Origin: an uncultured Clostridia bacterium | GTDB lineage: Bacteria; Bacillota; Clostridia; Christensenellales; UBA1242 | Assembly: GCA_944376825.1 (NCBI GenBank) | Contig: CALWDY010000027.1 | Span: 29,583 to 93,582 of the forward strand | DNA length: 64,000 nucleotides | Direction of reading: 5' to 3' | Notes under the pieces: model-generated | What the model saw: only the letters and a program-made list of their open reading frames with translations | Told to the model about the DNA's origin: nothing | Database searches by the model: none | Shown here: positions 9,120 through 42,100 of the stretch, in pieces | Numbering within the stretch: position 1 is the stretch's first letter | Layout: each line of letters begins with the position of its first letter | Translations under genes and position numbers: made by a program

Positions 9120-9572
9120 TTATCTTATTAATTGCTCCAAAGTTTGAGAAGTTGCTTGTGCCCCTTGATTATTAGGCAAGATTACCATAACTGTATCATC
9201 GCCATAAACAGAACCTAAAACATTTTCTAAATTTAACTTATCTATCATACAGCATATTCCGCATGCTAACCCTTTAACTGTTTTAATAACGCATAAATTG
9301 TTTGCAGGTTTAACAGATATAACAGACTCTCTAAAAATAGAAATGTTTTTGTTTGATACTGTTTGTTCTCCATTGTCCATCAAAGCATACTTATATTTAC
9401 CGTCGTTAGTTAAAATTTTAATAAGCCCAAGTTCTTTTATGTCCCTTGAAATAGTTGCTTGAGTTATATCAAAATTTGCTGCTTTTAAGCATGCAACCAA
9501 TTCATCTTGTGATGAAATTTCATGTGTTGATATTAATTCGAGTATTTTTGATTGTCTTGATGACCTTGCCAT
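9120..9572 (-). CDS. argR: Arginine repressor
   Basis: The N-terminal winged helix is RQSKILELI...QDELV..L...GFDITQATISRDIKEL and the C-terminal GDDTV oligomerisation motif is present. It lies upstream of recN, as ahrC-recN. Confidence 0.9.
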   Translation of the reverse strand: MARSSRQSKILELISTHEISSQDELVACLKAANFDITQATISRDIKELGLIKILTNDGKYKYALMDNGEQTVSNKNISIFRESVISVKPANNLCVIKTVKGLACGICCMIDKLNLENVLGSVYGDDTVMVILPNNQGAQATSQTLEQLIR

Positions 9573-9626
9573 TTTGCATTTCTCCTTAAAGGCTGGAACC
9601 CTTTGTTTATAAGGCTTTCAGCATGT

Positions 9627-9644
9627 TATGAATAAATATTCATG
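9627..9644 (-). promoter_or_regulatory. ARG-box-like operator in the argR leader
   Basis: The plus strand reads TATGAATAAATATTCATG, with palindromic arms TGAAT/ATTCA around an AT-rich core. This is close to the ARG box consensus TNTGAATWWWWATTCANW. A half-degenerate copy (TGCATACTTATTCA) abuts it. Confidence 0.5.
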
Positions 9645-9670
9645 CATACTTATTCAACCGATTTGGAATT

Positions 9671-9699
9671 ATTATACAATGTAATTTATAATTATGCAA
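9671..9699 (-). promoter_or_regulatory. Sigma-A type promoter for argR-recN
   Basis: The minus strand reads TTGCAT, a 17-nt spacer, then TATAAT. The ARG box lies about 25-45 nt downstream of the -10. Confidence 0.5.
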
Positions 9700-9793
9700 G
9701 TGTTTTTTGTATAATTATTCATTGGTTTTTTTATGATTATTTATGTTTGTAAATTTTTATAAAAACATGTTTTATATTTATGCAATATAATAA

Positions 9794-9819
9794 TAAAAAA
9801 AATAGACACTTGCCTATTT
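9794..9819 (-). terminator. Weak AT-rich terminator after the OapA-like gene
   Basis: The minus strand reads AAATAG-GCAAGTGT-CTATTT followed by a T8 run. Confidence 0.4.
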
Positions 9820-9853
9820 CTTTTATGTTTACACTTTTTTAAATTTTGTTTGA

Positions 9854-10534
9854 TTACTTTTTACAATTACCACCCTGCTCTTTCAAACTCTCATCTTGAC
9901 ACTTTTCATTTTCAGTGCTTTCAACCTCTTTACCATCTTCTTTATTTTTTTTGATTTTTGATTTGTTTTGTGGAGTAAAAAAACTTAATACCTTACCAAC
10001 AACCAAAACTATTTTACTTGAATTATCAATAGCATATTTTTTACATACAGACTTTCCAAATATGGTTAAACTTGCAACAATTGCACTAATTAAAGATGCA
10101 ATAATTATATTTAATGCAGAATTGGATTCAATAGCAACTTTCACAGTTATACTAGCTCCCGCAGCCCCAGATAAAATTCCACACACATCACCAATAACAT
10201 CACAGCAAATTGAAGAAACCCTATCAGCTTTTAGCAACAATTTAATTGATTCCTTTGCCCCCCTAACCTTTTTTGATGCCATTGCTCTAAATGGTTGTAT
10301 GTTCGCCGCAGTTGTCGCAACCCCTATCGTGTCTGCCACAATTGAAATTGCAACAAACACTACTATAATTAAAATTGCAATAAATAGCCCCGTTCCACTT
10401 AAAACCATTTCACTTAAAATACCAAAACAAATAGATAATGCAAAAGATAAAACTAAAATTTTTATAGACCATACCATTTGCTTATGGTTATTATTTTTAT
10501 TACTTTTTTGTTTGGGCTTGGATTTATAATCCAC
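9854..10534 (-). CDS. oapA: Four-TM membrane protein, OLE-associated protein A candidate
   Basis: GTG start at 10534 with AAGGAGA 8 nt upstream. It has four hydrophobic helices and twin acidic motifs (VADTIGVA and CDVIGDVCG), plus basic N- and C-terminal tails. It lies immediately downstream of the large structured RNA, which is the position OapA always occupies next to OLE RNA. Confidence 0.65.
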   Translation of the reverse strand: MDYKSKPKQKSNKNNNHKQMVWSIKILVLSFALSICFGILSEMVLSGTGLFIAILIIVVFVAISIVADTIGVATTAANIQPFRAMASKKVRGAKESIKLLLKADRVSSICCDVIGDVCGILSGAAGASITVKVAIESNSALNIIIASLISAIVASLTIFGKSVCKKYAIDNSSKIVLVVGKVLSFFTPQNKSKIKKNKEDGKEVESTENEKCQDESLKEQGGNCKK

Positions 10535-10552
10535 TTTGTTTCTCCTTTATTT

Positions 10553-10571
10553 AAAAAGGCACCAAGTGCCT
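10553..10571 (-). terminator. Short hairpin plus T-run between the RNA and oapA (probably leaky)
   Basis: The minus strand reads AGGCAC-TTG-GTGCCT followed by TTTTAAATAA. It ends 12 nt before the oapA RBS. Confidence 0.35.
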
Positions 10572-10614
10572 CTTTTATACATATATTCAATAGATTTACT
10601 ATATATTTAAAAAA

Positions 10615-11181
10615 TATGAAGGCAACACTTTAAGTAAACCTTGTGGCATAGGTTCGGTAGGATTTCCCAAATTTTGCACCCACCGTCACCGCATGGGCAG
10701 TTTCCTTTTACGCAAAATTTTAACACCGAATCGCCACTTAGACCACACTATAATCCCCAAAGTGTTTGAATATTCAACAGTCTAGAAGTTTTCCTTAACG
10801 CCTTAAACTATTCTTAGCTTTTTTTGCAAGTTAAATTTCATGTATATAACCAAAATTCAAATTGGCCAATTTAAAATTTAGTTTTTGCATACAATCCCAA
10901 TAAACTCACTCAAAGCAGGCTACTCTGCACACAGCCATGTTTTTAAACCGCAATGCAGGTTCTTACCCCAAGTAGTACAATTTAACAATGCACCATTTTG
11001 GGCCTCCACGATAATTGGGTCGGGTGCTATATGCCATTATAGCGCGCCCAAAAATCTTAACTTCCAGCACACACCCCAATTTGGGCAATCAAAGCATGCA
11101 CAAGAAACTTCACAGTTGTGCCCTTCGTTGCTTATCTTTCAACTTCCAAATAATTTAAGACGACTAGAATACTGCGCCTTC
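10615..11181 (-). ncRNA. Large structured non-coding RNA, OLE (ornate large extremophilic) class candidate; the ends are approximate
   Basis: This lies in a 760-nt gap with no credible ORF. It is locally G+C rich: I counted 26/60 G+C at 10981-11040 against 14/60 in xseA at 12301-12360. The 3' domain has five strictly nested helices (plus coordinates 10625-31/10759-65, 10631-35/10736-40, 10643-47/10733-37, 10653-59/10724-30, 10678-82/10694-98). UUGGG/CCCAA motifs recur. The synteny nusB-xseA-xseB-RNA-4TM protein...argR-recN matches published OLE loci. Confidence 0.7.
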
Positions 11182-11187
11182 ATTAAT

Positions 11188-11216
11188 ATTATAACATACA
11201 CACATTAATATTTCAA
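11188..11216 (-). promoter_or_regulatory. Strong sigma-A promoter directly upstream of the structured RNA
   Basis: The minus strand reads TTGAAA, a 17-nt spacer, then TATAAT, with TG at the extended -10 position (aTGtTATAAT). Confidence 0.6.
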
Positions 11217-11294
11217 GTATTTACACTCAAATACAACAAATTTAAATTCAATATTTAGTATTACTTTTTTAAATAATACCTATTATATTGTGTA

Positions 11295-11501
11295 TTATTT
11301 AAAATCTTTTTCTAATAAAACATCTAATTCGTTAGATATAATTGTTATCTTTCCTTTGTTTTCGTTCAACTGTTGACTGCATTTTTCTGCCAACAACTTA
11401 CCCTCTTCAAATAATTTTGTAGCTTCATCAAAATCACACTCGCCACTTTCTAACTGATTAACAATTTCTTCAAGGCGTTTTAACATTTTTTCAAATTCCA
11501 C
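11295..11501 (-). CDS. xseB: Exodeoxyribonuclease VII small subunit
   Basis: 68 aa. FEKMLKRLEEIVNQLESGE..FDEATKLFEEG is the XseB signature. It overlaps xseA. Confidence 0.9.
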   Translation of the reverse strand: MEFEKMLKRLEEIVNQLESGECDFDEATKLFEEGKLLAEKCSQQLNENKGKITIISNELDVLLEKDFK

Positions 11502-12684
11502 TTTTTTCTCCTTTAATTTTTAAAACTTCAACAATGGCTTCCCCATCAATAAATGTCAATTGTAAATTGTCATTTGGTTTTATATTTTTTATAGACAAAA
11601 TTTTTTCATTGCCTTTTTTTACACTTGCATATCCTAACTTCAAAACTTCTTTTGGGTTTAATTTTTTTAGCATCGAAGAAAGCATTTCAAATTTATGTTG
11701 TTTTGCCTCTGCAAATGTTTTTATTGCATGCATAAATTTTATTAATGTATTATTAAAGCGATTTTGATACCTTATATTTATATTTTTATAATTTTTATAA
11801 AAATCTTTACAAACATCAATAAAATTTTGTTGTTTATCTATATAAACACCCTTTATTGATTGTTTCAGCTTTGCTATGCATTGCTTAAAGTTTAAAATAT
11901 AATCTTTAATGTTGCTAAAAACAAGTTCTGCACCCGCACTTGGCGTAGGAGCTCTCAAATCACTGCAAAAATCACAAATAGTAAAATCAGTTTCATGGCC
12001 AACGGCCGACACAATAAATTTTTGACAGTTATATACTGCGTCAGCAACAATCTCGGTATTAAATGGTTGCAGGTCTTCAAGCGAGCCTCCTCCCCTTGCG
12101 ACAATAATAACATCAACATTATAATTATCAAAAAAACTAATTCCTTTTGCAATTTCATTCTCAGCGTTTACACCTTGAACTTTTACAGGATACAAAACTA
12201 TGTCTATAAAAGGATTTCTTCGAGTCCCAACATTTATTATATCTTGAATTACTGCCCCTTCCTTACTAGTTACAACACCAATCCTTTTTATGTTTGATGG
12301 CAAAATTTTTTTTCTGCCTTTATCAAAATACCCTTTTTTTCCCAATTTATTTTTAAGTTCAAGAAATTTTTGATATAACTCTCCCATTCCATATTTTGCT
12401 ATTTTAACAACATTAAAATTTAATTTTCCGCCTTTAACATAATACCTTGGAGTTCCTGTAACTATAACACTTTCACCATTAGAATACAAAAAATTAGATG
12501 TATCAAAACATACACAAGAAAGCGTTGCGTTTTCATCTTTTAGTGTAAAATACGCCACACCCCTAACAATACTCAACCCAGAAATTTCACCCAAAACTTT
12601 TATGTTATAAAGCATTTCTTCCGCATCAAATATTTGTTTTATATACATCGACAATTGAGAAACTGTAATAGGTTTTTCTTCCAT
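11491..12684 (-). CDS. xseA: Exodeoxyribonuclease VII large subunit
   Basis: N-terminal OB fold (VSQLSMYIKQIFD...VLGEISG), then IGVVTS..GA..QDI and ARGGGS.EDL motifs. Confidence 0.95.
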   Translation of the reverse strand: MEEKPITVSQLSMYIKQIFDAEEMLYNIKVLGEISGLSIVRGVAYFTLKDENATLSCVCFDTSNFLYSNGESVIVTGTPRYYVKGGKLNFNVVKIAKYGMGELYQKFLELKNKLGKKGYFDKGRKKILPSNIKRIGVVTSKEGAVIQDIINVGTRRNPFIDIVLYPVKVQGVNAENEIAKGISFFDNYNVDVIIVARGGGSLEDLQPFNTEIVADAVYNCQKFIVSAVGHETDFTICDFCSDLRAPTPSAGAELVFSNIKDYILNFKQCIAKLKQSIKGVYIDKQQNFIDVCKDFYKNYKNINIRYQNRFNNTLIKFMHAIKTFAEAKQHKFEMLSSMLKKLNPKEVLKLGYASVKKGNEKILSIKNIKPNDNLQLTFIDGEAIVEVLKIKGEKSGI

Positions 12685-13076
12685 TATTTATCCTCAATAA
12701 CTTTTTTTAATAATCCATTTACAAAAGAATAACTTTTATCTGTGCCATATTTTTTTGCAAGTTCAACAGCCTCATTTATAACAACAGCAATAGGCGTTTT
12801 TTTATAATAATTCATTTCAATAATGGCAGTGCATAAAATTGCCCTGTCTATTTTAAATATTCTTTCAGGAGTATAATCAATTAACAAATTATTAATTGTT
12901 TGCTCAACCTCATTTTTGTTGGTTTCATAAAGATCAAAAAGGGTGTTTGAAAAATCCTTATCATCTTGTGATTTCAAACAAGAAAAATCAGGCAACACAA
13001 AATTTTGACTGTCGCCATCTTGAAACAAACTTACATATATTTTTTTAAAAACATATTCTCTTGCAAATTTTCTCAT
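12684..13076 (-). CDS. nusB: Transcription antitermination factor NusB
   Basis: RKFAREYVFKKIY...DRAILCTAIIEM......P..VVINEAVELAKKYG is the NusB fold signature. The likely start is MRKF at 13076; the ORF track extends the ORF to 13097. Confidence 0.9.
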   Translation of the reverse strand: MRKFAREYVFKKIYVSLFQDGDSQNFVLPDFSCLKSQDDKDFSNTLFDLYETNKNEVEQTINNLLIDYTPERIFKIDRAILCTAIIEMNYYKKTPIAVVINEAVELAKKYGTDKSYSFVNGLLKKVIEDK

Positions 13077-13096
13077 AATCTCTCCTATAATAACCA

Positions 13097-13122
13097 AAAT
13101 CCCACAAAATAGTGGGATTTTA
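13097..13122 (-). terminator. Hairpin between asp23 and nusB
   Basis: AAAATCCCAC-loop-GTGGGATTTT, a 9-10 bp perfect stem. The U-tract is partly inside the stem. Confidence 0.45.
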
Positions 13123-15119: not shown

Positions 15120-16328
15120 CTATATAAAGTTTGCACTAAGCATTATCATGCCAGAAACTAATACATACATAAAGGCACAACCCACTATAATTACAATCAA
15201 AAGTGAGATACTTTTAGCAAGCATTGAAATAAAATTAGAAATCCTAGAATCAGTAATAGGTTCAAGTATTGCAGATGCAAGTTTTAAAGAAAACATAAAA
15301 ACCACAAGTTTGACTATTGGAACAATTATTGTTGAAAATAAAAGCAATAATCCACATGCACCCACAGCATTTTTTATTAACACGCTACTAGCAACAATCA
15401 AGTTTAGCCCATCAGAAATATAAGATCCCAAAAGTGGAATAGTATTTTTTATTGCGTATTTTGCCGTTCTAAAAGATATCCCATCAACACTTCCTGCAAT
15501 TATGCCTTGAATAGCTATAAAGGCTGAAAAAATTGTAAACACTGAACCAATTATCCATTTAAATGCACTAGAAAAAAACGAGGCAAATTTTTCCAGTTTA
15601 ACATTATTTGATAAATTTGAAATTATTGAAAAAACCAATCTAAATATAAATATTGGCATTAATACTGTGGTAAAAATGTTTGTTATAGTTCCACTTAAAA
15701 CTGCAACAGCGGGTTGATAAACACTCACTGACACAACTCCGCCGATTGCTGTCATAACAGTAAGCAAAATAGGAAAAGCAATATCCATTTGAGACTTTAT
15801 AGACTGTATTGTTGATGATGTTAAATTAATCATTGAAATTGTGCATGTAACCAAAATTACAATAATAGTACCATAACAAACAAAATGAATTACATCACCA
15901 AGTGATTTTGTTTTTCCATTTGGCTTTGATGATGATACCAAACTAAAAGTTACACTAATTGCTATTACCATTGCAATTAAAGGCAAAAAAGATAACACAT
16001 CATCAAAAAATAAGTTAATAATTGCATTCCAAACAGATTCTTGATTTTCGCTAAATTCCCCAGATATAACTTTTTTTATTTTATCCAAAAACGATGCCGA
16101 ACCAAAAATTTGTTTTTCATCGTCGCCTAGTTCATTTAAAATTTCCTCAAAATCTGAAAAATCTAAATCGCCAAGTTGAGAACTTATGCTGTCTTCTATA
16201 ATTTCTTGTATTTCATCTGCAGTCATTTCATCATCACAATATACAGCACCATTTTTATGCTCCGATGTTAAAAAAGGGACTCCCACAAAAAACAATAAAC
16301 ATATAAATATTACAAAAATTTTTTTCAT
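15120..16328 (-). CDS. spoIIIAE: Stage III sporulation protein AE
   Basis: 402 aa. It has a signal peptide and a polytopic membrane domain, and it is in the expected operon position. Confidence 0.85.
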   Translation of the reverse strand: MKKIFVIFICLLFFVGVPFLTSEHKNGAVYCDDEMTADEIQEIIEDSISSQLGDLDFSDFEEILNELGDDEKQIFGSASFLDKIKKVISGEFSENQESVWNAIINLFFDDVLSFLPLIAMVIAISVTFSLVSSSKPNGKTKSLGDVIHFVCYGTIIVILVTCTISMINLTSSTIQSIKSQMDIAFPILLTVMTAIGGVVSVSVYQPAVAVLSGTITNIFTTVLMPIFIFRLVFSIISNLSNNVKLEKFASFFSSAFKWIIGSVFTIFSAFIAIQGIIAGSVDGISFRTAKYAIKNTIPLLGSYISDGLNLIVASSVLIKNAVGACGLLLLFSTIIVPIVKLVVFMFSLKLASAILEPITDSRISNFISMLAKSISLLIVIIVGCAFMYVLVSGMIMLSANFI

Positions 16329-16711
16329 GGCAACAACTCCATGATAATTTCTAGTATTCTTGTTACTATTGGAAGTGCAATAAACAAAATTATAATTTTC
16401 CCAGCAAACAATATTTTGTCAGCAATGCTAGAACTTCCAGCATCGTTGCAAACATTTGCAGAAAATTCTGTTAAGTATCCAACTCCAATAATTTTTAGTA
16501 CTATCTTTAACAATTCAAAATCTAGCCCACTTTTTTCAACTAAACTTGTAAAAGAGTTTATTATATCTAAGATATAATTTATAGTTTGAGACAAAATTAA
16601 AATTCCACCACACAAACCAATTATTATACTTATTTCCGGTTTTAATGGTTTCACAATCATTGAAGCCACTACTGTTATAAGACCTATACCAATTATTCTT
16701 ATTATGTCCAT
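16325..16711 (-). CDS. spoIIIAD: Stage III sporulation protein AD
   Basis: MDIIRIIGIGLITVV... is the typical SpoIIIAD start, with a GAGG RBS upstream of the ATG at 16711. The ORF track extends the ORF to 16750. Confidence 0.85.
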   Translation of the reverse strand: MDIIRIIGIGLITVVASMIVKPLKPEISIIIGLCGGILILSQTINYILDIINSFTSLVEKSGLDFELLKIVLKIIGVGYLTEFSANVCNDAGSSSIADKILFAGKIIILFIALPIVTRILEIIMELLP

Positions 16712-16718
16712 AGAAACC

Positions 16719-16913
16719 TCACAAGCCAAAAAGATTTCTAACTGTATCAAAAAGCGTATTAATTAAATCTAAAACCATTAAAAGAACAATAATAAGCCCT
16801 GCAAGTGTTGAAAAAGTAGCAATTTCATCTTTGCCACTTTGTTTTAAAATTTGCCCTACAACTGTCGTCAATATTCCAACAGCAGCAATTTTGAATATTA
16901 CTTCAACCCCCAT
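16719..16913 (-). CDS. spoIIIAC: Stage III sporulation protein AC
   Basis: 64 aa with two TM helices. IFKIAAVGILTTVV.QILKQSGKDE is typical of SpoIIIAC. Confidence 0.85.
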   Translation of the reverse strand: MGVEVIFKIAAVGILTTVVGQILKQSGKDEIATFSTLAGLIIVLLMVLDLINTLFDTVRNLFGL

Positions 16914-22482: not shown

Positions 22483-25041
22483 TTACCCTCTTTTTACTTC
22501 AACTTTTTGATATACTTCAAATATGTCACCAACAACAATGCCGGTTGAATCTTTTAGTTTTATACCGCATTCATAACCATAATTTACTTCAGCCTTGTCA
22601 TCTTTTTGTATTCTTAATGCTTCAACAGATGTTTCTAAAATTTTTTCATTGTTTCTGTAAACATTAACAAATGAATTTCTTGTAACCTTTCCATCTTTCA
22701 CATAACAACCGCAAACAATACCGCTAGTAGACAATTTAAACATTGCTCTTACTTCTGCATGTCCTATAATTTGTTCTTCATATTTTACAGAAAGCATTCC
22801 GTTAACTGCATTGGTTATTTCATCAACAACCTCATAAATTACCTTATAAGATTTTACTTGAACACCCATAGATTCTGCTAATTGCTCTATTTTTGAAGAT
22901 AATTTTAAATTAAAATTAATAACAATTGCACTTGAAGCTTGTGCAAGCAACAAATCGGATTCAGTAACACCACCTGCTGCACTGTGGATACAAACAACTT
23001 TAACTTCCTCATTTTTAATCGCAGTAAGTGACTGTTTTAACGCTTCAACAGAGCCTTGAACATCTGCTTTTATGATAATGTTGAGTGCTTTAAGTTTTCC
23101 TTCATTAACCCTATCCATAAAGTCTTCAAGAGACACTCCACTTGTTGAATTTGCACGGTTTTCTTTTGCTTTTGCAATTCTTTCTTGTATAACTTGTTTT
23201 GATAATTTTTCATCAACAGCAAATACTTTTTCACCAGAATTAGGCACAGAATCTAGTCCTAAAACAGCGACAGGAGTGCTTGGTGTGGCAAATTTAACAG
23301 CTTTACCGTTTTCATCAAACATTGCTCTAACCTTTCCATAAGACACACCAGTCATAATAGAATCTCCAACTCTAAGCGTTCCCGATTGAACAAGTATAGT
23401 TGCAACAGGCCCTCTATTTTTGTCAAGTTCTGCTTCAATTATCGTTCCAACGGCACTTTGATTTGGATTGGCTTTTAATTCTTGCAATTCAGCAACTAAA
23501 AGAATCATTTTCAACAGTTCTTCAATTCCCAAACCTTTTTTTGCAGAAACAGGAACAAGTATTGCATCGCCACCCCAATCTTCTGGAAGAACTCCGTTTT
23601 CTGCAAGTTGTTGTTTAACTCTATCAATGTTTGCTTCTGGTTTATCCATTTTATTTATAGCTACAATCATTGGCACATTGGCAACTTTAATATGATTAAT
23701 AGCTTCCACTGTTTGTGGCATAATTCCATCATCTGCCGCAACAACTAAAACTGCTATATCGGTTACTTTTGCACCACGAGCGCGCATAGAAGTAAAAGCA
23801 GCATGACCAGGGGTATCAATAAATGTTATTTTCTCATCATTTATTGTTACTTGATATGCGCCTATTTTTTGAGTAATACCACCAGCTTCTCCGCTAACAA
23901 CATTGGTTTTTCTTATTGCATCAAGTAAAGATGTTTTGCCATGGTCAACATGTCCCATAACAGTTACAACAGGTGGGCGTTTCTCTAAACCCTCTTCGCT
24001 TTGTTGATGTTCTTTAACATCTTCCAACATCTGCTCTTCAAATGTTTTTTCAAATTTTTGTTCAAGTTTTACACCCAATTCTCCTGCAACAAGTTCTGCT
24101 GTAACAAAATCAATGCTACTATTTATATTTGCCATTACACCCAACATCATTAATTGCTTTATTATTTCAGCAACAGGTCTCCCTGTTTTTTCTGACAATG
24201 TTTTTACGGTTACATTAGGCGTTGTAATAACAGCACTTTCAATTTTTGGAGCAACAAAAACTTTTTGTTCTTTTTTCTTTTTTGCAAGTTTTCTATTGCC
24301 CATTCTTTCGCCATCAAAGTCTTCTAAGTCTATATCGTCAACAATTATATTTTTTCTTAAAAGAGTTTTTTTGCTAACTTGTTTCTTTTCTTCTATTTGT
24401 CTATTGGATTTGTTTTTGTTTCCATAATTTCTTTCAGGTTGAGACAAAACAGAACTGCTTTCTGTTGGTTGAAAAACTTTAAAAGAATTTGCTTTCGAAG
24501 TTGCGAAATTATTATTTCTTTGAACAAATGGTTTGTTTTGGCCATTTTTGTTCCAAGTTTTTTGTGTTCCATTGTTTACAAAGCGTGTTCCATTTGAATT
24601 TTGAGGCTTTGGCCCCCATGGTTTTTGAAAATTGTTGTTTCTTTCCCTGTTAAATGGTTTATTGTAATTGTTTTTTTCTTTATTAAAATTGTTGTTATTA
24701 AATTTATTTTGAGATGATTTATTGTTGAGAGATTCAAATTTTGTTTTAGTGTTAACATCAACACTGTTACTTGCAATTGCCACTGTTGCGTCATTTTTTT
24801 TCTCTGCTTGTTGTGAAATTTGATTTGTTACTTCAATTTTTGGAGTTTCTTGTTTCAAAGTAGCATTGACTTTTTTCTGTTCTTGCATTTTTTTTATAAC
24901 ATCATCCAATTGATTTTTTGATGCCCTTAAATCACGAAGAAAAACTTGAATCGCTCCGCTTGTTTGAATTTTGTATATGGATTTTAGATTGTTTAATCCA
25001 TTAGAATTTTGTTTTTCTGCTTTGTTAGTCAATATAATCAC
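22483..25041 (-). CDS. infB: Translation initiation factor IF-2
   Basis: G domain [21 protein letters not shown] and NKMD, followed by conserved C-terminal domains. The N-terminal third is N/Q/K-rich and low complexity. Confidence 0.97.
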
Positions 25042-25339
25042 CTCTCAAATATTTAATAATTTCTTCCGATATTCCTTTGTTCTTTATTCCTAAAACTTTA
25101 CAATTTGGAACACTTACCATTTCTTTAAAACTTTCTGTATCTATTTTACAAGAAACACAATTTGTGTGTAATTGGGTTTTATTTACAATTTTTTCGGTGT
25201 TTTTTCCTATATCCGAACTATATATCATCAAATATAATTTTTTATTATAACCCTTTAAGGCGTCAGCTCCTATAATAAGATATCCCGCCTTGTTTGCTAT
25301 ATTTATTAATCCTTTTATTTTAATTATGTTTTGTTTCAA
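25025..25339 (-). CDS. ylxQ: L7Ae-family RNA-binding protein YlxQ
   Basis: 104 aa with GLINIANKAGYLIIG. It lies between ylxR and infB. Confidence 0.8.
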   Translation of the reverse strand: MKQNIIKIKGLINIANKAGYLIIGADALKGYNKKLYLMIYSSDIGKNTEKIVNKTQLHTNCVSCKIDTESFKEMVSVPNCKVLGIKNKGISEEIIKYLRGDYID

Positions 25340-27309: not shown

Positions 27310-28881
27310 TTAAATTTCGTTTAATTTTAAAAAAACTTCCGCTGTAGCCGTTGCATCGGCAAGTGCTCTATGAGCATTATTTAATGTTAAATTTAGTGCT
27401 TCAACAACATTTATTAGTCTATATCTTGGCAAATACAATTTGTTTTTTGCAATCACCATGGCATCATATGTTTGATTATTAAAAAACAAACCAGCTTTTT
27501 GCGCACTGTTATTAATAAAAGCAAAGTCAAAAGCAACATTATAACCAACTAAAATGCAGTTTTCACAAAACTTAAAGAAATCGGCTATTGCATCGTTATT
27601 GTTAGGTGCATTTTTTACCATATCGTTTGTGATTGTTGTCAAATTTGTTATTTCTTCTGGAATTTCGTTTTCAGGGCAAATTAAAGTTTGAAATTGCTCT
27701 TTAATTTTTCCATCCACAATTTTAACAGCACCAATTTCTATCACTTCATTTACAATCGGATCAAGCCCCGTTGTTTCAACATCAAACACAACAAAATTGT
27801 TATTATTGATAAAGTCATTATAAATTGGTTTTTTATCAAAAATATTTTCCTGTTTAAGTGGCATATATATTGTAGGCTTAACAACTTTATAATTTTCAAA
27901 ATGAATGTTTTGCGTTGGTTTCTGCACTTCTACTTTTGATTCTAATTTTTTTTCTTGTTTAATAATTTCACAAATAGAAATACTTTTTAAACTTAAAGTC
28001 TTTTCCCTTTGACCTTTTTTTATATCTCCAATAACCAAAATTTTATCGCCATCTTTTAAGGTTTTAGCTTTCTTGTATGTAGTTTTATTAGAAAAATAAA
28101 TTGCAGATATACTTGCTGTTTCATCTGTAAGAGTAAAAGTATAATAATAACTTTCTTCGCTACCACCTTTCTTTTTGGTTCTCCTAGATATATAAGTTTT
28201 TTCCGCCAAATTGCTTATTTGCCCTGCCAAAATAACAGACTGTTTTTCTTCTGGCTGATCTTTTATATATTCAGGCATTGGCGTTATGTCCACGCCAATA
28301 ATTTTTTCAGGTTCATAAACCTCGTAACGAACAACTTTTTTGGGTTTTGGTAAATTTTTAATAAGTTCCTCTTCACGCTTTAATAAAATTTTATCATCCA
28401 TTATTTCTTGTTTATTTTCTAAAATATCAACACTAAAATTTGCAATAAAATTTTTATTTAATTCTTTTAATATATCATCTTTTAAATTATTGTAAATAAA
28501 ATAATCATATATTTCTTTTATTAAATTAAACTTAACAACAATATTAAATTCATTTCTAATTACATTAATATTTTCATCTTTATAATATGCAAATAATGAA
28601 GAATTAACATTTTTTAAATATTTTATTAAATGTTTTTTTATTAAATTTTCATCTAAATAACTTTTTTTAAATTTAATTTTAATTTCACATAATAAATTTA
28701 ATTCTTTTTTAATAAATTCTATTATTTCTTTTTTTTCATCATCTTCTAAATCTTTAATATTTTCCGGATACAAAAACCAAATTTCCGCACATGATAAAAG
28801 AGTGTTATATTCAACTTTTAACACTCTTAAAAAATCATATTTAAAATTAAACTCTTTGTTTATATTATCTAATATTTCCAT
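27310..28881 (-). CDS. PolC-like N-terminal/OB-fold plus DnaQ-type 3'-5' exonuclease protein lacking PHP and polymerase domains
   Basis: 523 aa. The OB segment is ILAGQISNLAEKTYISRRTKKKGGSEESYYYTFTLTDETASISAIYFSNK. Exo I is FVVFDVETTGL and Exo III is HRALADATATAEVF. It lies between rseP and rimP, where polC normally lies. Confidence 0.7.
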   Translation of the reverse strand: MEILDNINKEFNFKYDFLRVLKVEYNTLLSCAEIWFLYPENIKDLEDDEKKEIIEFIKKELNLLCEIKIKFKKSYLDENLIKKHLIKYLKNVNSSLFAYYKDENINVIRNEFNIVVKFNLIKEIYDYFIYNNLKDDILKELNKNFIANFSVDILENKQEIMDDKILLKREEELIKNLPKPKKVVRYEVYEPEKIIGVDITPMPEYIKDQPEEKQSVILAGQISNLAEKTYISRRTKKKGGSEESYYYTFTLTDETASISAIYFSNKTTYKKAKTLKDGDKILVIGDIKKGQREKTLSLKSISICEIIKQEKKLESKVEVQKPTQNIHFENYKVVKPTIYMPLKQENIFDKKPIYNDFINNNNFVVFDVETTGLDPIVNEVIEIGAVKIVDGKIKEQFQTLICPENEIPEEITNLTTITNDMVKNAPNNNDAIADFFKFCENCILVGYNVAFDFAFINNSAQKAGLFFNNQTYDAMVIAKNKLYLPRYRLINVVEALNLTLNNAHRALADATATAEVFLKLNEI

Positions 28882-34504: not shown

Positions 34505-37500
34505 TTATTGCTCTTCATCTATGTTTATATCAACATTTTTATTTTCATCTTCAATGTCTTTTTTCTCGCCTTTGATGTTTTTTTTATGGCGATTGAGTTT
34601 ATCACTTTCTTCCTTTGTTTTCTTTATAGTATTTACAGCAAAAATGTACATTTTAATAGAAACCCAAGCAATTATAGACACAAGAATAGCCCCCACTCCA
34701 ACTGTTACATATAAAAGCCAAGGTGGATTTGTTTGATTTTGTGCCAATGCAAATTTTAAACTTAAATCACTAATTTCAAAAACAATCATATTATCTACAA
34801 TTTGATAACCAACTTCTTTAATTTCGTTTTTATCATTGTATAAATAAATATTTAAATTTTCATTACTGTTTACATTTAATCTAACAACAACTTTTGTGTT
34901 TTTTGGGACATTACCTTCCACAGTAAACGAATATGAAACCAAAACTTTTTTTGAAGTTAACATATTGTTTATCTTTGATAATGTTTTACTTGATGTATCT
35001 TCGCACAACTCAACTTGCACATCGTTTAAAACCAAGTCTCCATATTTATCAAAAACTTCATTCCCATTTTGATTTATAAATGTTGGTGCCTTTATTATTT
35101 TTAAAACACCCGTAATAGAGCCTTTGTAGTTTTGTTCGTTTACAATAATTTCAAAATCGTAATCACCTATTTCTATCGCATTTAACACATTCATTTTTAC
35201 AACAGCCAAGCAATCTTTACTTAAACTAAATTTAGGCAATTTACTTTGGCCATCATAAACAAAAGTATCTTCTTCAACTGTTATAAAAACAGATTGTTTT
35301 TCTATTGTTAAAGTTGCCTCGTTTGAAATAGAACTATTATAATTTTCATTACCGTCAAAATATGCAACAACTTTGTAAATTCCTGCATTTATAGGGGTTT
35401 CCACTGATATGCCATTTTGAGTATAAACATAATTTAACTTTAAATTTTCTATTTCGTCAACGCTGTGAACTTTTCCATCATAAACAACATTTTTATCATT
35501 TAATGTTATATTTACATTTGCCTTTTGTATTTCAAAAAAACATTCGTTATAATTTGTTATTATATAATTTTGCAGTTCACAATTTTGCACCAATAATTTA
35601 TAACTGCCTACATTCTCTCCTTCTTCTCTATACACTAATAAGTCAAAAGGAATTTCATCACAACTTACATTGAATTGAATTTCTGGGTCATTTTGTCCAT
35701 ATAGTTTATTTTGATTTGGCAAAAATTCAAGTGTTATTTGTTTTTTGGTAATTACAAAATCATTTCCATGAAAAATTATGCTATAATTTTGCAAATTGTT
35801 CTCATCAAGTAAAATGTTATATACACCAACATTTTCGCCTTGTTGTCTAGTTAAATTTATTATAACAGAATCGTTATATTTTAATCCTTCTAAAACATAA
35901 GTAAGCGCGCAATCATCATCACCATATTGTTTTTCTTTTCTGTCAGCAAAAACATTTAAATCGGCTTTTTCAATGATGTATTTTGCCTCAACAAATTCAA
36001 TGTCATAGTTAGGATTATTTAAAGAGCCAATTGTGATATCATAAACACCAACATTTGTGCCATTTACTCTTGACAAAGTGCCAACAAAACTATCACCTTC
36101 CAAAATGTTAGAAGAATATGTTAATTGTTTATCTTCGTCTCCGTAAACCGAAGTTACATTATCTGCAACAACATTTACTTTGCGTTTTAATATTTCTAAC
36201 ACTCCTTGCATGTAAACAATTTCATAATTAGTATTTGATGATTTTATATCAATTAAATACGAACCAACATTTTCTCCATTTTCTCTTACATACTCATAAA
36301 TTAGTTGGTCATCATTTACAATGTCACCATAAATAACATCAAAAGTAAACATTGGGTCATTATCTCTATAAACCTTAGATAATGAATTTATTTTTATAAC
36401 AATCTTTCTTTTGTTGATTTTATAAGAAAAAGTTACCAAGTCAATTTTATAATTATCATTATTAACACTAACATCGTTTATTGCATAAGTTCCAACATCT
36501 TCCCCTTGTTGTCTTTGAATAGAAAACTCTAAAATATCACCATCTACAACATCTTCAATATTGTAAGTATATTTTATTGGCTGATCTTCTTCTCCATAAG
36601 TTTTTTGGTTATCGTTAGAAATGTAAACATGAATTGTTTTTTGTTCAATTGTAAGATTTCCATTTACATAGCTAATTACATAATTTTTATACTCTTTTGG
36701 TGTTATACAAATTTCATATTGTCCAACATTATTACTAGCGTTTTTAATATAAGCATTAAACACCAAATTATCTTCCTCTATTGCATTAGTTACAACACAA
36801 GAAATGTCATTTATAATTTCGCCATATGTAATTGTTTTGTTGACTGCTGTAACGGTTATTTCTCTTGGTAAAATTGTGTATGAGAACTGGCTTTTAGCAA
36901 AATAATTTTCTTCATTAATAGTTACAACAATTTCATATGTTCCTGCATTTATTGGACTAACTTGCTCATTATTTTTGTAAACTGCAAAAGTATAAGGTAG
37001 TTTGTTTTCTACTGTTATGACAGGGAATTTTTCTTGCTTATCATAAACAAAACTTTCACCATTAAAATCAATGCTTACACTTGCCCTTTTTATTTCAAAT
37101 TGCCCTGCTGTTTCACCGAAATAATTTTCATCTTGAATGCTAACAGTGTATTCATAAACACCAGCATTTATTGGATTTGCTACAAGCCCATTTTGAAAAT
37201 ATTGAATGGACATATGTTTATTTAATGAGTTGTTCGCAACAATATTTTTTTCTGTTCCATCGTATGCAAAATCAATGTCGTTAACAACTATTTCTAATTG
37301 TTTTTTGACAATTGTAAAACCTAAAACTCCGCTTCCTTCAAATTCGGTTGAACTTACACTATATTTTACAATATATTCTCCCACGCTAAATGGCGTAATT
37401 TCATTTTCCAAATCTTGTTTTTTATAGTAATTAAAAGAAATTAAACTATCATCAACATTAGATGTAAAATCTAAAAGAAAACCACTTTCATCAAAAATAT

Positions 37501-39178
37501 ATTCAGTTTTGTTTAGCTCCACAATTGCAATTTGTTTTTGAGAAATTGAAGCAAACAATTCTCCACTACCAACATAATTTTCTGTATCAATGCTGTATAC
37601 AATTTTATATTCCCCTGGATTTATAAAATCTACCATTAAATCATTTTGATAATAAACAAGTTTTAAATCTGTTAAATCATCAATATTGGCTGATAAATTT
37701 AATTCAACTTTATTTCCAGTATATGAGTACACATTTGTTAAAAGGCTAACATTAACTATTTTTCTAAATTGCACATAAACATTGTAATTTTCTTTTATAG
37801 TTAAATTGAAACTATTTCCAACAACATCAACTATTTCTTCATTTACTTTTACATAATAAAACTCGTAACCATCTTGTGCATTAAATGTTACTAATTGCTC
37901 TTGACCATATCGTAAATTATTATTTGAGCCAAAAACTTCTCCACCAGCAGAACATGAGACATTAACATTATAAAAATTATCATCAACATAAAAAGTAAAC
38001 TCTTGAATTTCATTGCTATTTAATGCTTCATCAAAAGAAGTAACTTTTAATGTATACATGCCATTTTCTGCCACCTCAATTGTATTTGTGCCATTAAAAA
38101 GTCTTTCACTGCTTTGTGTTGGCGTAGTACCATCTATTGTATATACAAAATATTCAGTTGCACAATTTGTTGTATTTTCATTAAAAGAAGCTTCAAAAGT
38201 AACTGTTTTTGTGTAATAAATTTCTTTCAATGAACTAACAAAAATTATTTCAGGCTTTTGAGTGTCAATTTTTTCTTCAACATAGTTAGAAGTATATGCA
38301 TTTCCTACATTGTCTACTGCCAAAATTTCATAATTGCCGTTTTGTGATATCTCATATGTATAAGTTGCTGTTTTTGTATCTTCACTAATTTCAAAATTTA
38401 ACAATTTGGCATTTCCAAAAGAAAATGTATTTATGCCTGACTCTGTATCTTGCACATTAATTGTTACAATTCTTTTTTGTTCATAATTTTGCGAATTTAA
38501 ATTTAAACTTACAGTTGGCGATGTCGTGTCTGTTGTGTTAAAAGTTAAAGTTGGCTCTTTAACTCTCATAATTTCATAAACTTCTTTTTTATATAACTCT
38601 TCAAATTTTAGTTGTAAATATGTTGCATTTTGTGGTTCAATTTCCAAAACATCAGGGCTATCTTTATAATCGTAAGATGTATAATCAACATAATTGGATG
38701 ATAAAACTTGATTATTTGAATCAAATGAACTAAAACTCATTCTAAGTTCGTCTTTGCCATCATCAACAAACCAAATTTTGCCACCATATTCGGATGCAAA
38801 ATAAGCACTTGCACTAACAGTTAGATATCCATTTCTGCTTGCCATTTGTAAATTATTTGCCAAATTTATTGTTGAAATAAATTTGGCTGTGGTTGATGCA
38901 AATTGAGTGTTGCTTTTGTGGTAGTGATAAAGTTCATTTTCTCTTTGTTGCCACATGTTTTTATCAGCAATATATTCAAAATAATCACAAATACTACTTA
39001 CCCCATTATTATTTGGATATAAATAATAGGTTCCTATTTTATCTATTGTTAAAATTTGCGATTGACCAACATTGGTTTCCGCAAAAACTTCACTGTTGCC
39101 TTTATTAAAAGAAAAAGCAATAGAAAAAACACAACAAATGATAAGTAATGAAATTGTTGATTTATATAATTTATTCAT
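34505..39178 (-). CDS. Giant surface protein: signal peptide, Ig-like and MBG (YG-x-x-DP..LTY) repeats, C-terminal TM anchor plus charged tail
   Basis: 1557 aa. At least 6 repeats are of the form YG(D/E).D..(L/I).Y....(G/D)..(Q/R).GE.VG.Y.I......NY.I, and there are further N(A/P)G.Y repeats. The C-terminal helix is WLLYVTVGVGAILVSIIAWVSI. No LPXTG motif is present. Confidence 0.75.
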   Translation of the reverse strand: MNKLYKSTISLLIICCVFSIAFSFNKGNSEVFAETNVGQSQILTIDKIGTYYLYPNNNGVSSICDYFEYIADKNMWQQRENELYHYHKSNTQFASTTAKFISTINLANNLQMASRNGYLTVSASAYFASEYGGKIWFVDDGKDELRMSFSSFDSNNQVLSSNYVDYTSYDYKDSPDVLEIEPQNATYLQLKFEELYKKEVYEIMRVKEPTLTFNTTDTTSPTVSLNLNSQNYEQKRIVTINVQDTESGINTFSFGNAKLLNFEISEDTKTATYTYEISQNGNYEILAVDNVGNAYTSNYVEEKIDTQKPEIIFVSSLKEIYYTKTVTFEASFNENTTNCATEYFVYTIDGTTPTQSSERLFNGTNTIEVAENGMYTLKVTSFDEALNSNEIQEFTFYVDDNFYNVNVSCSAGGEVFGSNNNLRYGQEQLVTFNAQDGYEFYYVKVNEEIVDVVGNSFNLTIKENYNVYVQFRKIVNVSLLTNVYSYTGNKVELNLSANIDDLTDLKLVYYQNDLMVDFINPGEYKIVYSIDTENYVGSGELFASISQKQIAIVELNKTEYIFDESGFLLDFTSNVDDSLISFNYYKKQDLENEITPFSVGEYIVKYSVSSTEFEGSGVLGFTIVKKQLEIVVNDIDFAYDGTEKNIVANNSLNKHMSIQYFQNGLVANPINAGVYEYTVSIQDENYFGETAGQFEIKRASVSIDFNGESFVYDKQEKFPVITVENKLPYTFAVYKNNEQVSPINAGTYEIVVTINEENYFAKSQFSYTILPREITVTAVNKTITYGEIINDISCVVTNAIEEDNLVFNAYIKNASNNVGQYEICITPKEYKNYVISYVNGNLTIEQKTIHVYISNDNQKTYGEEDQPIKYTYNIEDVVDGDILEFSIQRQQGEDVGTYAINDVSVNNDNYKIDLVTFSYKINKRKIVIKINSLSKVYRDNDPMFTFDVIYGDIVNDDQLIYEYVRENGENVGSYLIDIKSSNTNYEIVYMQGVLEILKRKVNVVADNVTSVYGDEDKQLTYSSNILEGDSFVGTLSRVNGTNVGVYDITIGSLNNPNYDIEFVEAKYIIEKADLNVFADRKEKQYGDDDCALTYVLEGLKYNDSVIINLTRQQGENVGVYNILLDENNLQNYSIIFHGNDFVITKKQITLEFLPNQNKLYGQNDPEIQFNVSCDEIPFDLLVYREEGENVGSYKLLVQNCELQNYIITNYNECFFEIQKANVNITLNDKNVVYDGKVHSVDEIENLKLNYVYTQNGISVETPINAGIYKVVAYFDGNENYNSSISNEATLTIEKQSVFITVEEDTFVYDGQSKLPKFSLSKDCLAVVKMNVLNAIEIGDYDFEIIVNEQNYKGSITGVLKIIKAPTFINQNGNEVFDKYGDLVLNDVQVELCEDTSSKTLSKINNMLTSKKVLVSYSFTVEGNVPKNTKVVVRLNVNSNENLNIYLYNDKNEIKEVGYQIVDNMIVFEISDLSLKFALAQNQTNPPWLLYVTVGVGAILVSIIAWVSIKMYIFAVNTIKKTKEESDKLNRHKKNIKGEKKDIEDENKNVDINIDEEQ

Positions 39179-42100
39179 TGTCTTCTCCTTTTAATTTATT
39201 TGGCAAACAGTAGAGTGTTTGCTGTTGATTTTTTATTTCAAACTTCAACGAAATTTTTATATCATTTATATCAATATCCGTTAATGTTGTATCTTTGTCA
39301 TAAACCATGTAAGTTTCTGTTATTTCGCTGGTACCAGTAACTGTAACAACTACATTTATTTCGTATTGTTCGCTTATTTGAAGTGTTCTTATAAAACCAT
39401 TTTCATCAATTGTATAGGTTAAATTGCAATAGTTAAATTTTGATGGCGTTTGACCACTGAGTGCTGACATTTGTTTTATATAGTTTGATACCGCAGTACT
39501 TGGATTTAAAACAAAAGTAAATATTGTGTTTGTTCCATTTTTTGCTAGTCCATTAATGCTTTTAATTGTTGATTTGTTAATTGTGTAAGCAAAATGATCG
39601 TATGGATACAAACCATAAATTGATTTATAATTTTCAGGTGTTGTATCGGTAAAGTTTCCATATGTTGCTTCATAATTTGAATTAACATCTTTAACCTGTT
39701 GATACTTAGTTTCTCCTGTATTGTTATTGTAATATGTTAAAAGTGATACTCTTGGATCAACTCCTGCCACCTTTTCACCATAATTTAATTTTTCAGTTAA
39801 AGTTATTCCGTTTGAATCTGTTTTCCTTATTCCTCTAACCTGCTGAGTTCCTCCCATAGTCAAGTTTACAGTTCCCACAATATTAACATATGAACTATTT
39901 GCTTCTCTTAAAAGTTGATATCCTTTTTGGAAAACAAAATATGTATAATCTACTGATGGAATAACAAAATTATGTAAAGTTTCATCTACAACCTGAACAC
40001 TAGAAGTTTCAAGCGATTCACAATTTAAGTACGATAATGTACCTTTAATAATGTTTGTGCCAACTAAACCACTTAAAACAAAATCTCCGTTTGAATTTGT
40101 ATAAACATAATTATTTCCTGCCGTTATCTTCATACCGATAACAGGAACATTGCTTCCTTCAACTGTAACTCTACCACTTATTTTATACGATTTTTGAATT
40201 GCAATGGAAATTGCACTTGGAGATTTTACTCCAATTATTTGTGGATTAAATACAAATCCATCTTTTTCAAAAGAAAGATAAACTTGTCCACTAACATTTT
40301 TCAAAATATAATTTGATGATGATATTGTGTGAATTTGATTTTCAATTCCATTTTGCTGTACTGTAAGAATTATATTTGAATACTCTGTTATTCCACTGAA
40401 ATTTATTGAAATATTGTAAGTTAAATTAATATTTTCATTTTCGGCAAAATCACTGTAAGTTTTTGATACAGAATTATAACCTGACTTTATAAATTCCACT
40501 TGACTGTTTGCATCCAAATTATTAAGTTCAAAATATCCACTTTCATTTGTGATTGTTTCATTATCGCCACATCTAACAATAACATCACCAAGTGCAATTT
40601 CGTTTGAATTTACATAACCACAAATTGTAAACATTGCTTCAAAATCTATTTGCTTGCTTATGTTGTAATTCAATCCCCCCCTAAATGAATATCCTCTTTT
40701 TTCTATAAGCAAAGTTCCCGAGCCAACTAAATTATCAAAAGAGTAAAATCCATTTTCATCCGTTAAAATGCTTTGACTTTGAGTTGAAACCATAACCCCT
40801 TGCATTTTAACGCCATTAAACGAAACATAACCGTATATCCTATATGAAGCATTTACATCATAATTTTGTGGAGCTATAACATTATAAGAAGAAAATTTAT
40901 AACCGTCTTTTTCAAACGACAACGACTTTTCACCTTCAATATTACTTATTTGAAACTGACCTAAATTATTTGTAAAATATTCTTCTTCACCTAAAATTAT
41001 TTTTACATTATCAAGTAATACATCGTTTGATTTAATCGTCCCACTAATAGTATAACTTGCACTTATTATTTGATTTTCAAAACTATTTATATCAAAATTT
41101 TTTAAATCAAAAGCATAACCTTCTTTTGAACATAAAATATTCGCCTCATCATTATATAACACAAAAGAAAATTCACCTTGACTGTTAGTTAAATATTCTT
41201 CATCACCTACACAAACTAAAACATTACTTACAAATAAACTTCCACTTTTTATAGTCCCTTGAATGATTTTTCCAGCATTAATAGTTAAATTATCATAACC
41301 ACTAATAAGTGTGGCATCTTCAAATTGAAATCCTGTTTTATTTAAATATAAAAAATTTTCGCCACTAAGATTATTAATTTTAAAATATCCATTTTCATTT
41401 GTTTGGGTTATTATTTCACCAACTCTTATGTCTACATTGTTTAATTTTGTGTTTCCCCAAGTTACATAACCCTCCACAAAGTAAGATGCTTCAAAATTTA
41501 TATCTTTTCTTTCATTATCATCACTCGTAACAAAAATGCTTGCTGGCAAAAATGTATATCCTTGCTTAAATGCTAACAATTCACAATCATTTTTTAGTAA
41601 ATTAAAATAGTAATACCCCTTTTCATTTGTTGTAACCGTTTGTTCGCCCGCTGTAATTGTAACGCCACTAACAGGATTACCGTTTGACATAACAAAGCCA
41701 CCAAGTTCAAAACCATTTAACACAAAATCATATTGCCCACCAAATGTAACATCGTATGATGTTGGTCTTAGTTTCAACCCATCTTCATTTTCATAAAATA
41801 GTATATTTTTACCTTCAATATCAATAAATTCAAAATATCCTAAATTGTTAGTAAGTATTTGTTGTGATATATTTGTTTGATAGTTTGTAACAAAAATTTT
41901 TGTGTTTGCTAATGGAGTTTCTTCACTAATTGCGTACCCAAAAACTTTATATTTGACATTTATTACAACATTTTGTGTATTCTCATTAACAACAACACTG
42001 CTTGTTGTGGTGATACAATCATGATTGCAAGACAAAGTATTTGTTCCTTGAAGATTGAAAATTTCAAAGAAACCTTGACTATTTGTAAATGTACTATTTT

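Follow-up and report, generated by a model that had tools for sequence, protein, structure and literature searches.

OLE, the ornate, large, extremophilic RNA first described in 2006, acts in trans as an abundant RNA bound by the proteins OapA, OapB, OapC and bS21. Published OapA binds it cooperatively (2:1) and recruits it to the membrane, the proposed point of contact being a cluster of basic residues on one face of the protein. The RNA is common among anaerobic spore formers, its presence correlating with that of sporulation genes, and the survey of Fernando and Breaker (2024, mSphere; PMC11332333) covers 2,822 OLE genomes, with thousands of Bacillota that include reduced-genome, uncultured gut clades. 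We describe here an OLE locus in 64,000 nucleotides of DNA from an uncultured Clostridia bacterium (contig CALWDY010000027.1, positions 29,583 to 93,582; hereafter the window), in which what is very probably a functional OLE RNA gene is followed, on the minus strand, by a gene for OapA.

Two variant forms of the RNA have been described (PMC11332333). Variant 1, commonest in the uncultured gut order TANB77, has shorter P7–P9 and is often without the OapB site, while variant 2, of RF39, is without P7 and P8; OapB and OapC are largely missing from both clades. The primary OapB-binding site in Halalkalibacterium halodurans (H. halodurans) is P13, a hairpin with a GNRA loop and a single bulged nucleotide (PMC7936274), and P14.1 is described as a weak secondary site.

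The window locus is one more member of this well-catalogued family rather than an element of some new type. The traits of its host fit those of OLE carriers, since the window contains spoIIIAA-AH, spoIVB and ytfJ, and the nearest relatives are metagenome-assembled genomes (MAGs) of uncultured Clostridia and Christensenellaceae. A first-pass annotation of the window had remarked that the host is not an obvious extremophile; in view of the published distribution of OLE this is nothing unusual (PMC11332333).

The OLE RNA gene and the adjacent gene for OapA

The window was scanned whole against the Rfam 15 covariance models, and OLE (RF01071) is the sole match across its entire length. The principal features of the locus are as follows.

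10603 to 11196, minus strand: OLE RNA gene, the extent of the Rfam RF01071 match
9854 to 10534, minus strand: oapA, encoding a 226-residue polytopic membrane protein with DxxxD at D112–D116 and the basic loop FRAMASKKVRGAKE
10542 to 10547, minus strand: Shine-Dalgarno-like AAGGAG, 7 nt before GTG, where oapA starts

The OLE match scores 401.6 bits against a gathering score of 50 (E 1.7e-114). It is 594 nt long, spans model positions 1–616 of 616 and is therefore not truncated. When the Rfam structure is projected onto the window copy, 137 of its 147 pairs are canonical. The region folds with an energy of -167 kcal/mol compared with -146.9 +/- 6.3 kcal/mol for dinucleotide shuffles (z = -3.2), and none of 100 shuffles is as good. 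The mature RNA probably runs from about 11183 to about 10612, with its predicted ends set by helix P1. The first-pass annotation had pointed to the raised G+C content of the region, and its counts (26/60 at 10981–11040 and 14/60 at 12301–12360) are exact. OLE as a whole has 37.9% G+C against 29.0% for the window, a value reached by 0.2% of 594-nt segments. Nevertheless, the rise is not specific to OLE, because a coding stretch inside infB (23201–23995) reaches the same G+C (0.379).

The gene for OapA starts 69 nt downstream of the Rfam match on the same strand. Its product aligns with the OapA that Kretsch et al. 2025 give in their Supplementary Table 4 (PMC12286853) at 38% identity over 170 residues (BLASTP, E 5e-32); that published sequence was machine-read from a PDF and may contain minor letter errors. 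Four hydrophobic segments are evident by the Kyte–Doolittle scale at residues 26–44, 49–67, 117–135 and 141–159, and the helices of an AlphaFold2 model agree with them. The loop between the second and third segments (residues 79–106) is basic, with eight Lys or Arg residues against two Asp or Glu. Within it F82, A84, M85, G92, A93, K94 and E95 are invariant in 34 homologues. The motif DxxxD, here D112-V-I-G-D116, has been named as distinctive of OapA and is lacking in CNNM domains (PMC11332333); both of its aspartates are invariant in the same 34 homologues, which range down to 44% identity, and in 14 further loci.

The Pfam model for CNNM (PF01595; CNNM/DUF21) gives 20.6 bits on the window protein, under its cut-off of 28.4, and such weak CNNM similarity is the behaviour of OapA described by Fernando and Breaker (PMC11332333). 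The AlphaFold2 model has a mean pLDDT (predicted local distance difference test) of 72.9, with the N-terminal 6 and C-terminal 37 residues disordered. In a Foldseek search with this model the first four ranks are taken by MtCorB (7M1T chains A and B, and 7M1U) and by the transmembrane domain of CorC (7CFG), all at probability 1.00 and with template modelling (TM) scores of 0.47–0.48 normalised to the query; 7M1U is also the reported top match to H. halodurans OapA (PMC11332333). Searches of PDB sequences, both with the window protein alone and with a profile of the 34 sequences, found no match even at E 1–10, so that the relation to CNNM is visible only by fold comparison. No NCBIfam model names the window protein, none of the 552 relatives retrieved in a homologue search carries an informative name, and identical copies of the sequence turned up on short metagenome contigs only. 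Homology to published OapA, the DxxxD motif, the four segments and the CNNM-like fold together identify the 226-residue protein as OapA.

The protein thus resembles the family of H. halodurans OapA (WP_010898928.1) in its four segments, invariant DxxxD, basic loop between segments 2 and 3, distant CNNM/DUF21-like fold and gene position directly after ole. It differs from published OapA in its longer, lysine-rich, low-complexity tail (residues 187–226, pLDDT <50), and the identity to it is only 38%. With the CNNM Mg2+ transporters MpfA, CorB and CorC it has in common the transmembrane fold and the sub-threshold match to PF01595. Unlike them, it is without CBS-pair or CorC/HlyC domains and possesses the DxxxD motif; it has four hydrophobic segments where CorB has three membrane helices (PMC11332333), and its partner is an RNA, whereas CNNM proteins have cytosolic protein domains instead. 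Absence of the proline conserved in CNNM domains is a further trait of the OapA family.

Base pairing in the window copy and its relatives

Relatives of the downstream protein were searched for in one genome per species. This gave 80 loci, almost all from uncultured gut Clostridia MAGs, including Christensenella sp. UBA..., Candidatus Onthoplasma (Christensenellaceae in the NCBI taxonomy), Clostridium sp. CAG:417 and Firmicutes bacterium CAG:884. With the window RNA as nhmmer query, 73 of the 80 proved to have an OLE homologue immediately before the protein gene. The covariation alignment, MAFFT-based, comprises 68 full-length OLE copies and that of the window, and the frequencies given below refer to these 69 sequences. 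Because the window row served to project the Rfam structure, the fraction of paired cells is favoured, but the compensatory counts are not.

The projected structure comprises 20 helices with 147 pairs, over which the paired fraction of cells is 82.3%, compared with 40–47% when the 3' partners are slid by 1–3 columns. Compensatory changes, with both sides altered, are seen at 124 of the 147 pairs. The covariation score is 0.417 against 0.09–0.15 for the slid controls, and none of 500 shuffles reaches any of the observed covariation measures. The alignment contains 85 invariant and 79 nearly invariant columns, near-invariant blocks at about 25% of positions being a trait of the family. P1 and P3 add two to the 20 helices of the projected structure, where about 20–25 helices in about 600 nt are expected for the family. 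Compensatory change on this scale, in a set of relatives with OapA identities as low as 44%, indicates that the structure of OLE is under purifying selection. The covariance model, the covariation and the homology of OapA are thus all favourable to the identification of OLE and OapA made in the first-pass annotation.

The same alignment bears on whether the intergenic region might instead code for a protein, with the RNA signal incidental. As previously noted, there is no credible open reading frame (ORF) in 10535–11294: the only long one, of 107 residues with a TTG start codon, lies on the plus strand at 10885–11208. It is antisense to the 401-bit OLE match, the corresponding segment stays open for 95 codons or more in no more than 3 of 69 relatives, and substitutions in the relatives track base pairing rather than codon structure. 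The ORF was rejected on its rarity in relatives, and we consider a coding role for the region extremely improbable. Returning to the RNA, its helices and loops in the window are listed here.

11176 to 11183, minus strand: 5' strand of P1, AUGAAGGC, pairing with 10616–10623 (GCCUUCAU) and closing the whole RNA
11164 to 11175, minus strand: 5' strand of P3/P3.1 (GCAGU...CUAG), pairing with 10777–10785 (CUAGACUGU) and enclosing domain 1 (P3–P9)
11061 to 11107, minus strand: 20-bp hairpin with conserved apical loop UUGCCCAAA, helix 3 of the projected structure
11010 to 11056, minus strand: stem with internal hairpin, loop AAUGGCAU, flanked by conserved GUUAAG and CGUGGAG segments
10817 to 10916, minus strand: P9 arm of about 100 nt, helices 10–13, with palindromic end loop UUGGCCAA, GGCC at 10864–10867
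10624 to 10766, minus strand: 3' domain (domain 2), the part described in the first-pass annotation, with coordinates from the projected Rfam structure
10766–10756/10634–10624, 10747–10743/10646–10642 and 10730–10725/10658–10653, minus strand: nested helices of the P12 series in the 3' domain
10719–10712/10677–10669 and 10698–10690/10685–10678, minus strand: P14 and P14.1 of the 3' domain, with a GUGA loop

Two long-range helices, P1 and P3/P3.1, have no annotation in the Rfam model yet are both supported by covariation. P1 is 86% paired, with UA<->CG, AU<->GC, AU<->UA and CG<->UA exchanges, and is present in the minimum free energy fold. In P3/P3.1, eight of the nine pairs are formed in all 69 sequences and the outermost G-U in 62; at pair 11172/10780 of P3, GC has changed to UA eight times and to CG twice. 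The name P3 and the proposed membrane-spanning role of its stem are taken from PMC12265935.

Helix 3 is 94.3% paired, with compensatory change at 17 of its 20 pairs, and its apical loop reads UGCCCAA in 48 sequences and CGCCCAG in 16. It is largely from this stem and neighbouring ones that the UUGGG and CCCAA repeats derive; UUGGG does recur six times on the minus strand, as the first-pass annotation had counted, and CCCAA three times. Helices 4 and 5, in the stem at 11010–11056, are 81.6% and 99.1% paired, respectively, and the hairpin loop there is AAUGGCAU or AACGGCAU in 68 of the 69. The GUUAAG/CGUGGAG region forms a k-turn in published models (PMC9723947, PMC12286853) and, by correspondence, may do so in the window.

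At the tip of P9, the apical tetranucleotide alternates among the palindromes GGCC, GUAC, GCGC and ACGU across relatives. Palindrome switching of this kind is published evidence, from 2025 cryo-electron microscopy (cryo-EM) work, for an intermolecular kissing loop in the OLE homodimer (PMC12286853). The palindromic GGCC of the window is thus, judged from sequence, a kissing-loop candidate consistent with that dimer. The apical loop (10862–10869) has no detectable palindrome in ten sequences, and some of the shortest relatives are without the distal P9 arm. The type of palindrome differs by lineage and, should dimerisation go through this loop, the 'addresses' of different lineages would be incompatible with one another.

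Helices 16–18, in the 3' domain, are 95.7–99.8% paired with many compensatory changes. Five helices had been listed here in the first-pass annotation. The Rfam structure contains ACACUUU/AAAGUGU (7/7 pairs), UUCGGUG/UACCGAA (6/7) and GCCCA/UGGGU (5/5) but not UAAGU/ACUUA or GUGGC/GCCAC (0/5 in each case). The true partner of CCACA is UGUGG at 10747–10743, which is 98.8% paired with compensatory changes in the relatives; the GUGGC proposed earlier lies in a nearly invariant segment, with 91.6% pairing and little covariation. Nor are the five strictly nested, since the second and third share nucleotides at 10736–10737 and the first and second at 10631.

Genomic setting and putative transcription signals

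The setting of the locus involves the following further features.

11295 to 11501, minus strand: xseB, exonuclease VII small subunit (PF02609, 62.9 bits), upstream neighbour
9120 to 9572, minus strand: argR, arginine repressor (PF01316, PF02863), downstream neighbour
11188 to 11216, minus strand: sigma-A (sigma-70-type) promoter-like site, TTGAAA (11216–11211), 17-nt spacer, TGtTATAAT (-10 at 11193–11188)
10553 to 10575, minus strand: hairpin AAAGAGGCAC-UUG-GUGCCUUUUU then AAAU, between OLE and the oapA ribosome-binding site

The promoter-like site agrees with the consensus at 11 of 12 positions and carries the TG extension; no other site in 9500–11700 scores as well. It ends 5–6 nt upstream of the first nucleotide of P1. 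In 45 of 70 loci the OLE 5' end is preceded by a site with at least 9/12 agreement, and in most of the loci listed the -10 element has the same offset. OLE therefore appears, from these sequence features, to have its own sigma-A-type promoter. The palindrome at 10553–10575 was reported on the plus strand by an automatic scan and is read here on the minus strand from the sequence. It folds at -11.9 kcal/mol (z = -2.1) and is retained by the two closest relatives, L001 and L008, apart from one G-C pair that has become G-U; it may be a weak intrinsic-terminator-like or processing/stability element. Several points weigh against an independent transcription unit bounded in this way. Promoter-like hexamers are frequent in 29% G+C DNA, with 16 in the scanned region against 11.3 expected; the hairpin with its T-run is a weak element, found in 18 of 70 loci and kept only in close relatives; and H. 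halodurans OLE is processed from a long polycistronic transcript, which is why we can only infer independent transcription of the window copy.

The same features raise the question of whether the structured region is chiefly a cis-acting element, a very long 5' leader controlling oapA by attenuation at the 10553–10575 hairpin. OLE and oapA do lie on one strand, 69 nt apart, with the hairpin and a U-run just upstream of the oapA ribosome-binding site and no separate strong oapA promoter between them, the best candidate being TTGCCT-16-TATAGT at 9/12. However, OLE is known to act in trans, bound by its four proteins, and some 600 nt and 25 helices go far beyond the needs of any known attenuator. 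The small share of loci with the hairpin and the processing of the H. halodurans RNA argue in the same direction, and a cis-acting leader seems to us very improbable beside a trans-acting OLE RNA.

Pfam matches establish the gene order Asp23/yqhY-nusB-xseA-xseB-RNA-membrane protein-argR-recN-spoIVB, confirming the neighbourhood previously claimed. The conserved order in Bacillota such as B. subtilis and H. halodurans is yqhY-nusB-folD-xseA-xseB-ispA-[ole-oapA]-dxs-yqxC-argR-recN, with ispA-ole-oapA-dxs the arrangement in H. halodurans itself. On the ORF map of the window, folD, ispA, dxs and yqxC/tlyA are not found between nusB and argR (9573–13097). This may reflect genome reduction or relocation of the isoprenoid genes. 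The earlier description of the host DNA as gene-poor does not hold, as about 94% of the window lies within non-overlapping ORFs of 70 codons or more, the spurious ORF antisense to OLE included.

All or part of the asp23-nusB-xseA-xseB-OLE-oapA-argR-recN-spoIVB neighbourhood is common to around two dozen close relatives. In 51 of the 80 loci, nothing but the OLE-oapA pair is in common with the window, and the pair therefore moves as a unit between genomic contexts. That it is the sole constant part of the neighbourhood across these gut Clostridia supports the published view of OapA as the indispensable partner. The statement in the first-pass annotation that oapA always directly follows the RNA is true of the 73 related loci mentioned above but too strong as a rule. 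Four loci with complete flanks (L024, L028, L042 and L050) have an OapA homologue with intact DxxxD, at about 5.5–6.6 kb in each locus, but a search relaxed to Rfam E <= 1 finds no OLE within +/-6 kb. In these, OLE may be elsewhere in the genome or may have been lost. L028 and L042 retain the asp23-nusB-xseA ... argR-recN context, and in L042 the OLE slot is occupied by a 568-residue ORF that looks like a prolyl-tRNA synthetase. The basic loop of OapA has diverged in L042 but is kept in L024, L028 and L050, and loss of the loop was rejected as a correlate of missing OLE since there is no clear pattern.

The window copy resembles full-length OLE, as in H. halodurans and Clostridium acetobutylicum, in its end-to-end model match, P1, P3, long P9 with palindromic loop and immediately downstream oapA, and the hosts are alike spore-forming Bacillota. 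The conserved blocks held in common are GCAGUAUUCUAGUC, the GCCCA loop, the AAUGGCAU loop, CGUGGAG, GUAGCCUGC and GGAAAAC, along with CUAGACUGU, GGGAUUAUAGUG, AAGUGG, GGAAAC and GGGAAAUCC. It differs in lacking P13, in being AT-rich (38% G+C) with A-U-rich stems and in having an apparent promoter of its own, whereas H. halodurans OLE occurs only within a long operon transcript; and, unlike at usual OLE loci, ispA and dxs are not found beside it.

Elsewhere in the window, also on the minus strand, a 523-residue protein (27310–28881) encoded between the gene of an M50 (RseP-like) protease and rimP has domains of the OB-fold and RNase_T/DEDD exonuclease types only. In this it is like the N-terminal third of PolC, with no polymerase domain, and its gene could be a polC that has been split or truncated, or else code for an exonuclease that works by itself. 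Two adjacent giant genes (34505–43814), taking up 14% of the window, encode proteins of 1557 residues with MBG-domain repeats and 1547 residues with CarboxypepD_reg-like repeats, both of which are probably located at the cell surface. Finally, a 141-residue ORF at 16325–16750 has two matches to the SpoIIIAC/AD family, reflecting either a spoIIIAC-spoIIIAD fusion or ORF calling across a short gene boundary.

The missing P13 hairpin and the possible composition of the particle

Of the conserved OLE architecture the window RNA lacks a single element, the P13 hairpin.

10720 to 10724, minus strand: site of the lost P13 hairpin, about 5 nt remaining between P12.2 and P14

In the Rfam alignment, a 17-nt segment of the model at P13 corresponds to 0 nt in the window. 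The site measures 4–5 nt in the window and in 43 of the 68 relatives, while the other 25 have a hairpin of 14–23 nt, typically with a GNRA-type loop. The GUGA-capped P14.1 hairpin is kept in the window. The loss does not exclude membership of the OLE family, because the same loss has been reported in variant OLE RNAs, and the P13-less window copy scores near relatives that bear P13 (405 bits for L036).

Loss of the hairpin might alternatively be the first sign of erosion in an OLE pseudogene, a non-functional relic decaying in a reducing genome. The absence from the locus of the canonical neighbours folD, ispA, dxs and yqxC would fit such decay, and the four related loci with an OapA homologue and no nearby OLE suggest that loss of OLE does happen in this group. 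Yet the score is that of P13-bearing relatives, the other helices are intact with their canonical pairs, and the promoter-like site is positionally conserved. The P13-less form is, moreover, kept in 43 relatives, with OapA 44–90% identical, in which helices are preserved by compensatory changes. We therefore regard a relic as highly unlikely and a functional OLE gene without P13 as the better description of the locus.

Comparison with variant 1 (PMC11332333) shows both likeness and difference. As there, the host is an uncultured, gut-type, low-G+C member of the Clostridia, and the OapB-binding nucleotides at P13 are gone. However, the arms that are shortened in variant 1 are not clearly so in the window: with arms named by helix order, P7 has 36 nt against about 48 Rfam consensus positions, P8 has 34 against about 30, and P9 has 100 against about 98. 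The shortfall in P7 is mostly a single 8-nt loop deletion, and P8 and P9 are of full size. The 401.6 bits, from the Rfam 15 model, lie just above the authors' line of 390 bits, although their range of 310–390 comes from a different model. The nearest relatives of the window appear to be Christensenellales-like MAGs, not explicitly TANB77. The window OLE thus sits between full-length and variant 1 forms, a matter of degree within a known family.

The absence of P13 suggests that the particle in this lineage probably works without OapB, matching the reduced-genome gut clades. In the window, tblastn found no homologue of OapC (YbxF); OapB, a KOW protein of the YbzG type, was not searched for, and 64 kb do not permit genome-wide absence to be inferred. 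A 104-residue ORF between ylxR and infB (25025–25339, minus strand) has no Pfam match, even to L7Ae at E <= 1, and no similarity to published OapC. This slot normally holds YlxQ, an L7Ae-family paralogue of OapC.

By combining the features of the locus with work on other species, a working scheme for the particle can be proposed. OLE would be transcribed from its own sigma-A-type promoter (TTGAAA-17-TGtTATAAT), starting at the 5' strand of P1, and transcription would partly stop, or the transcript be stabilised, at the weak hairpin before oapA, which would itself be read by read-through past 10553–10575. By analogy with published work on H. halodurans and with the Clostridium cryo-EM structures, two OLE molecules may dimerise via conserved loop contacts, including the P9 palindrome. 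OapA dimers, attached close to P2 and P4a, would keep the RNA at the membrane or possibly spanning it; the P3 stems of OLE have recently been proposed to cross the bilayer. So positioned, the particle may modulate a CNNM/MpfA-like divalent-cation (Mg2+) function and so aid tolerance of alcohol, cold, excess Mg2+ and poor carbon sources.

There is a reason for caution with this scheme in addition to those given for the transcription signals and for OapB and OapC: the Mg2+ and stress role and the membrane-spanning model would be transferred from distant species. The evidence on the locus itself comes from sequence and structure prediction, and it leaves the published picture of what OLE does as it was.

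A further reading, which we put forward tentatively and hold to be somewhat short of an even bet, is that the locus encodes a natural two-component OLE particle: a P13-less OLE with OapA, without OapB and perhaps without OapC, expressed from its own small transcription unit in the reduced, AT-rich genome of a gut member of the Clostridia. Such a particle would differ from variant 1 in keeping full-size P8 and P9 arms.

The observations on P13 refine work published in 2024–2025 and open no new question. They do show, in the window and 43 P13-less relatives, that the docking hairpin for OapB can be lost with every other helix still under selection. Since OLE is among the largest conserved bacterial non-coding RNAs with unknown biochemical function, well-defined natural variants of this kind are of some value. 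If the two-component reading is true, the particle would lend itself, as a naturally compact system, to reconstitution and imaging of the OLE-OapA core, and sister lineages that keep OapA without a nearby OLE would be a natural experiment on OapA acting alone.

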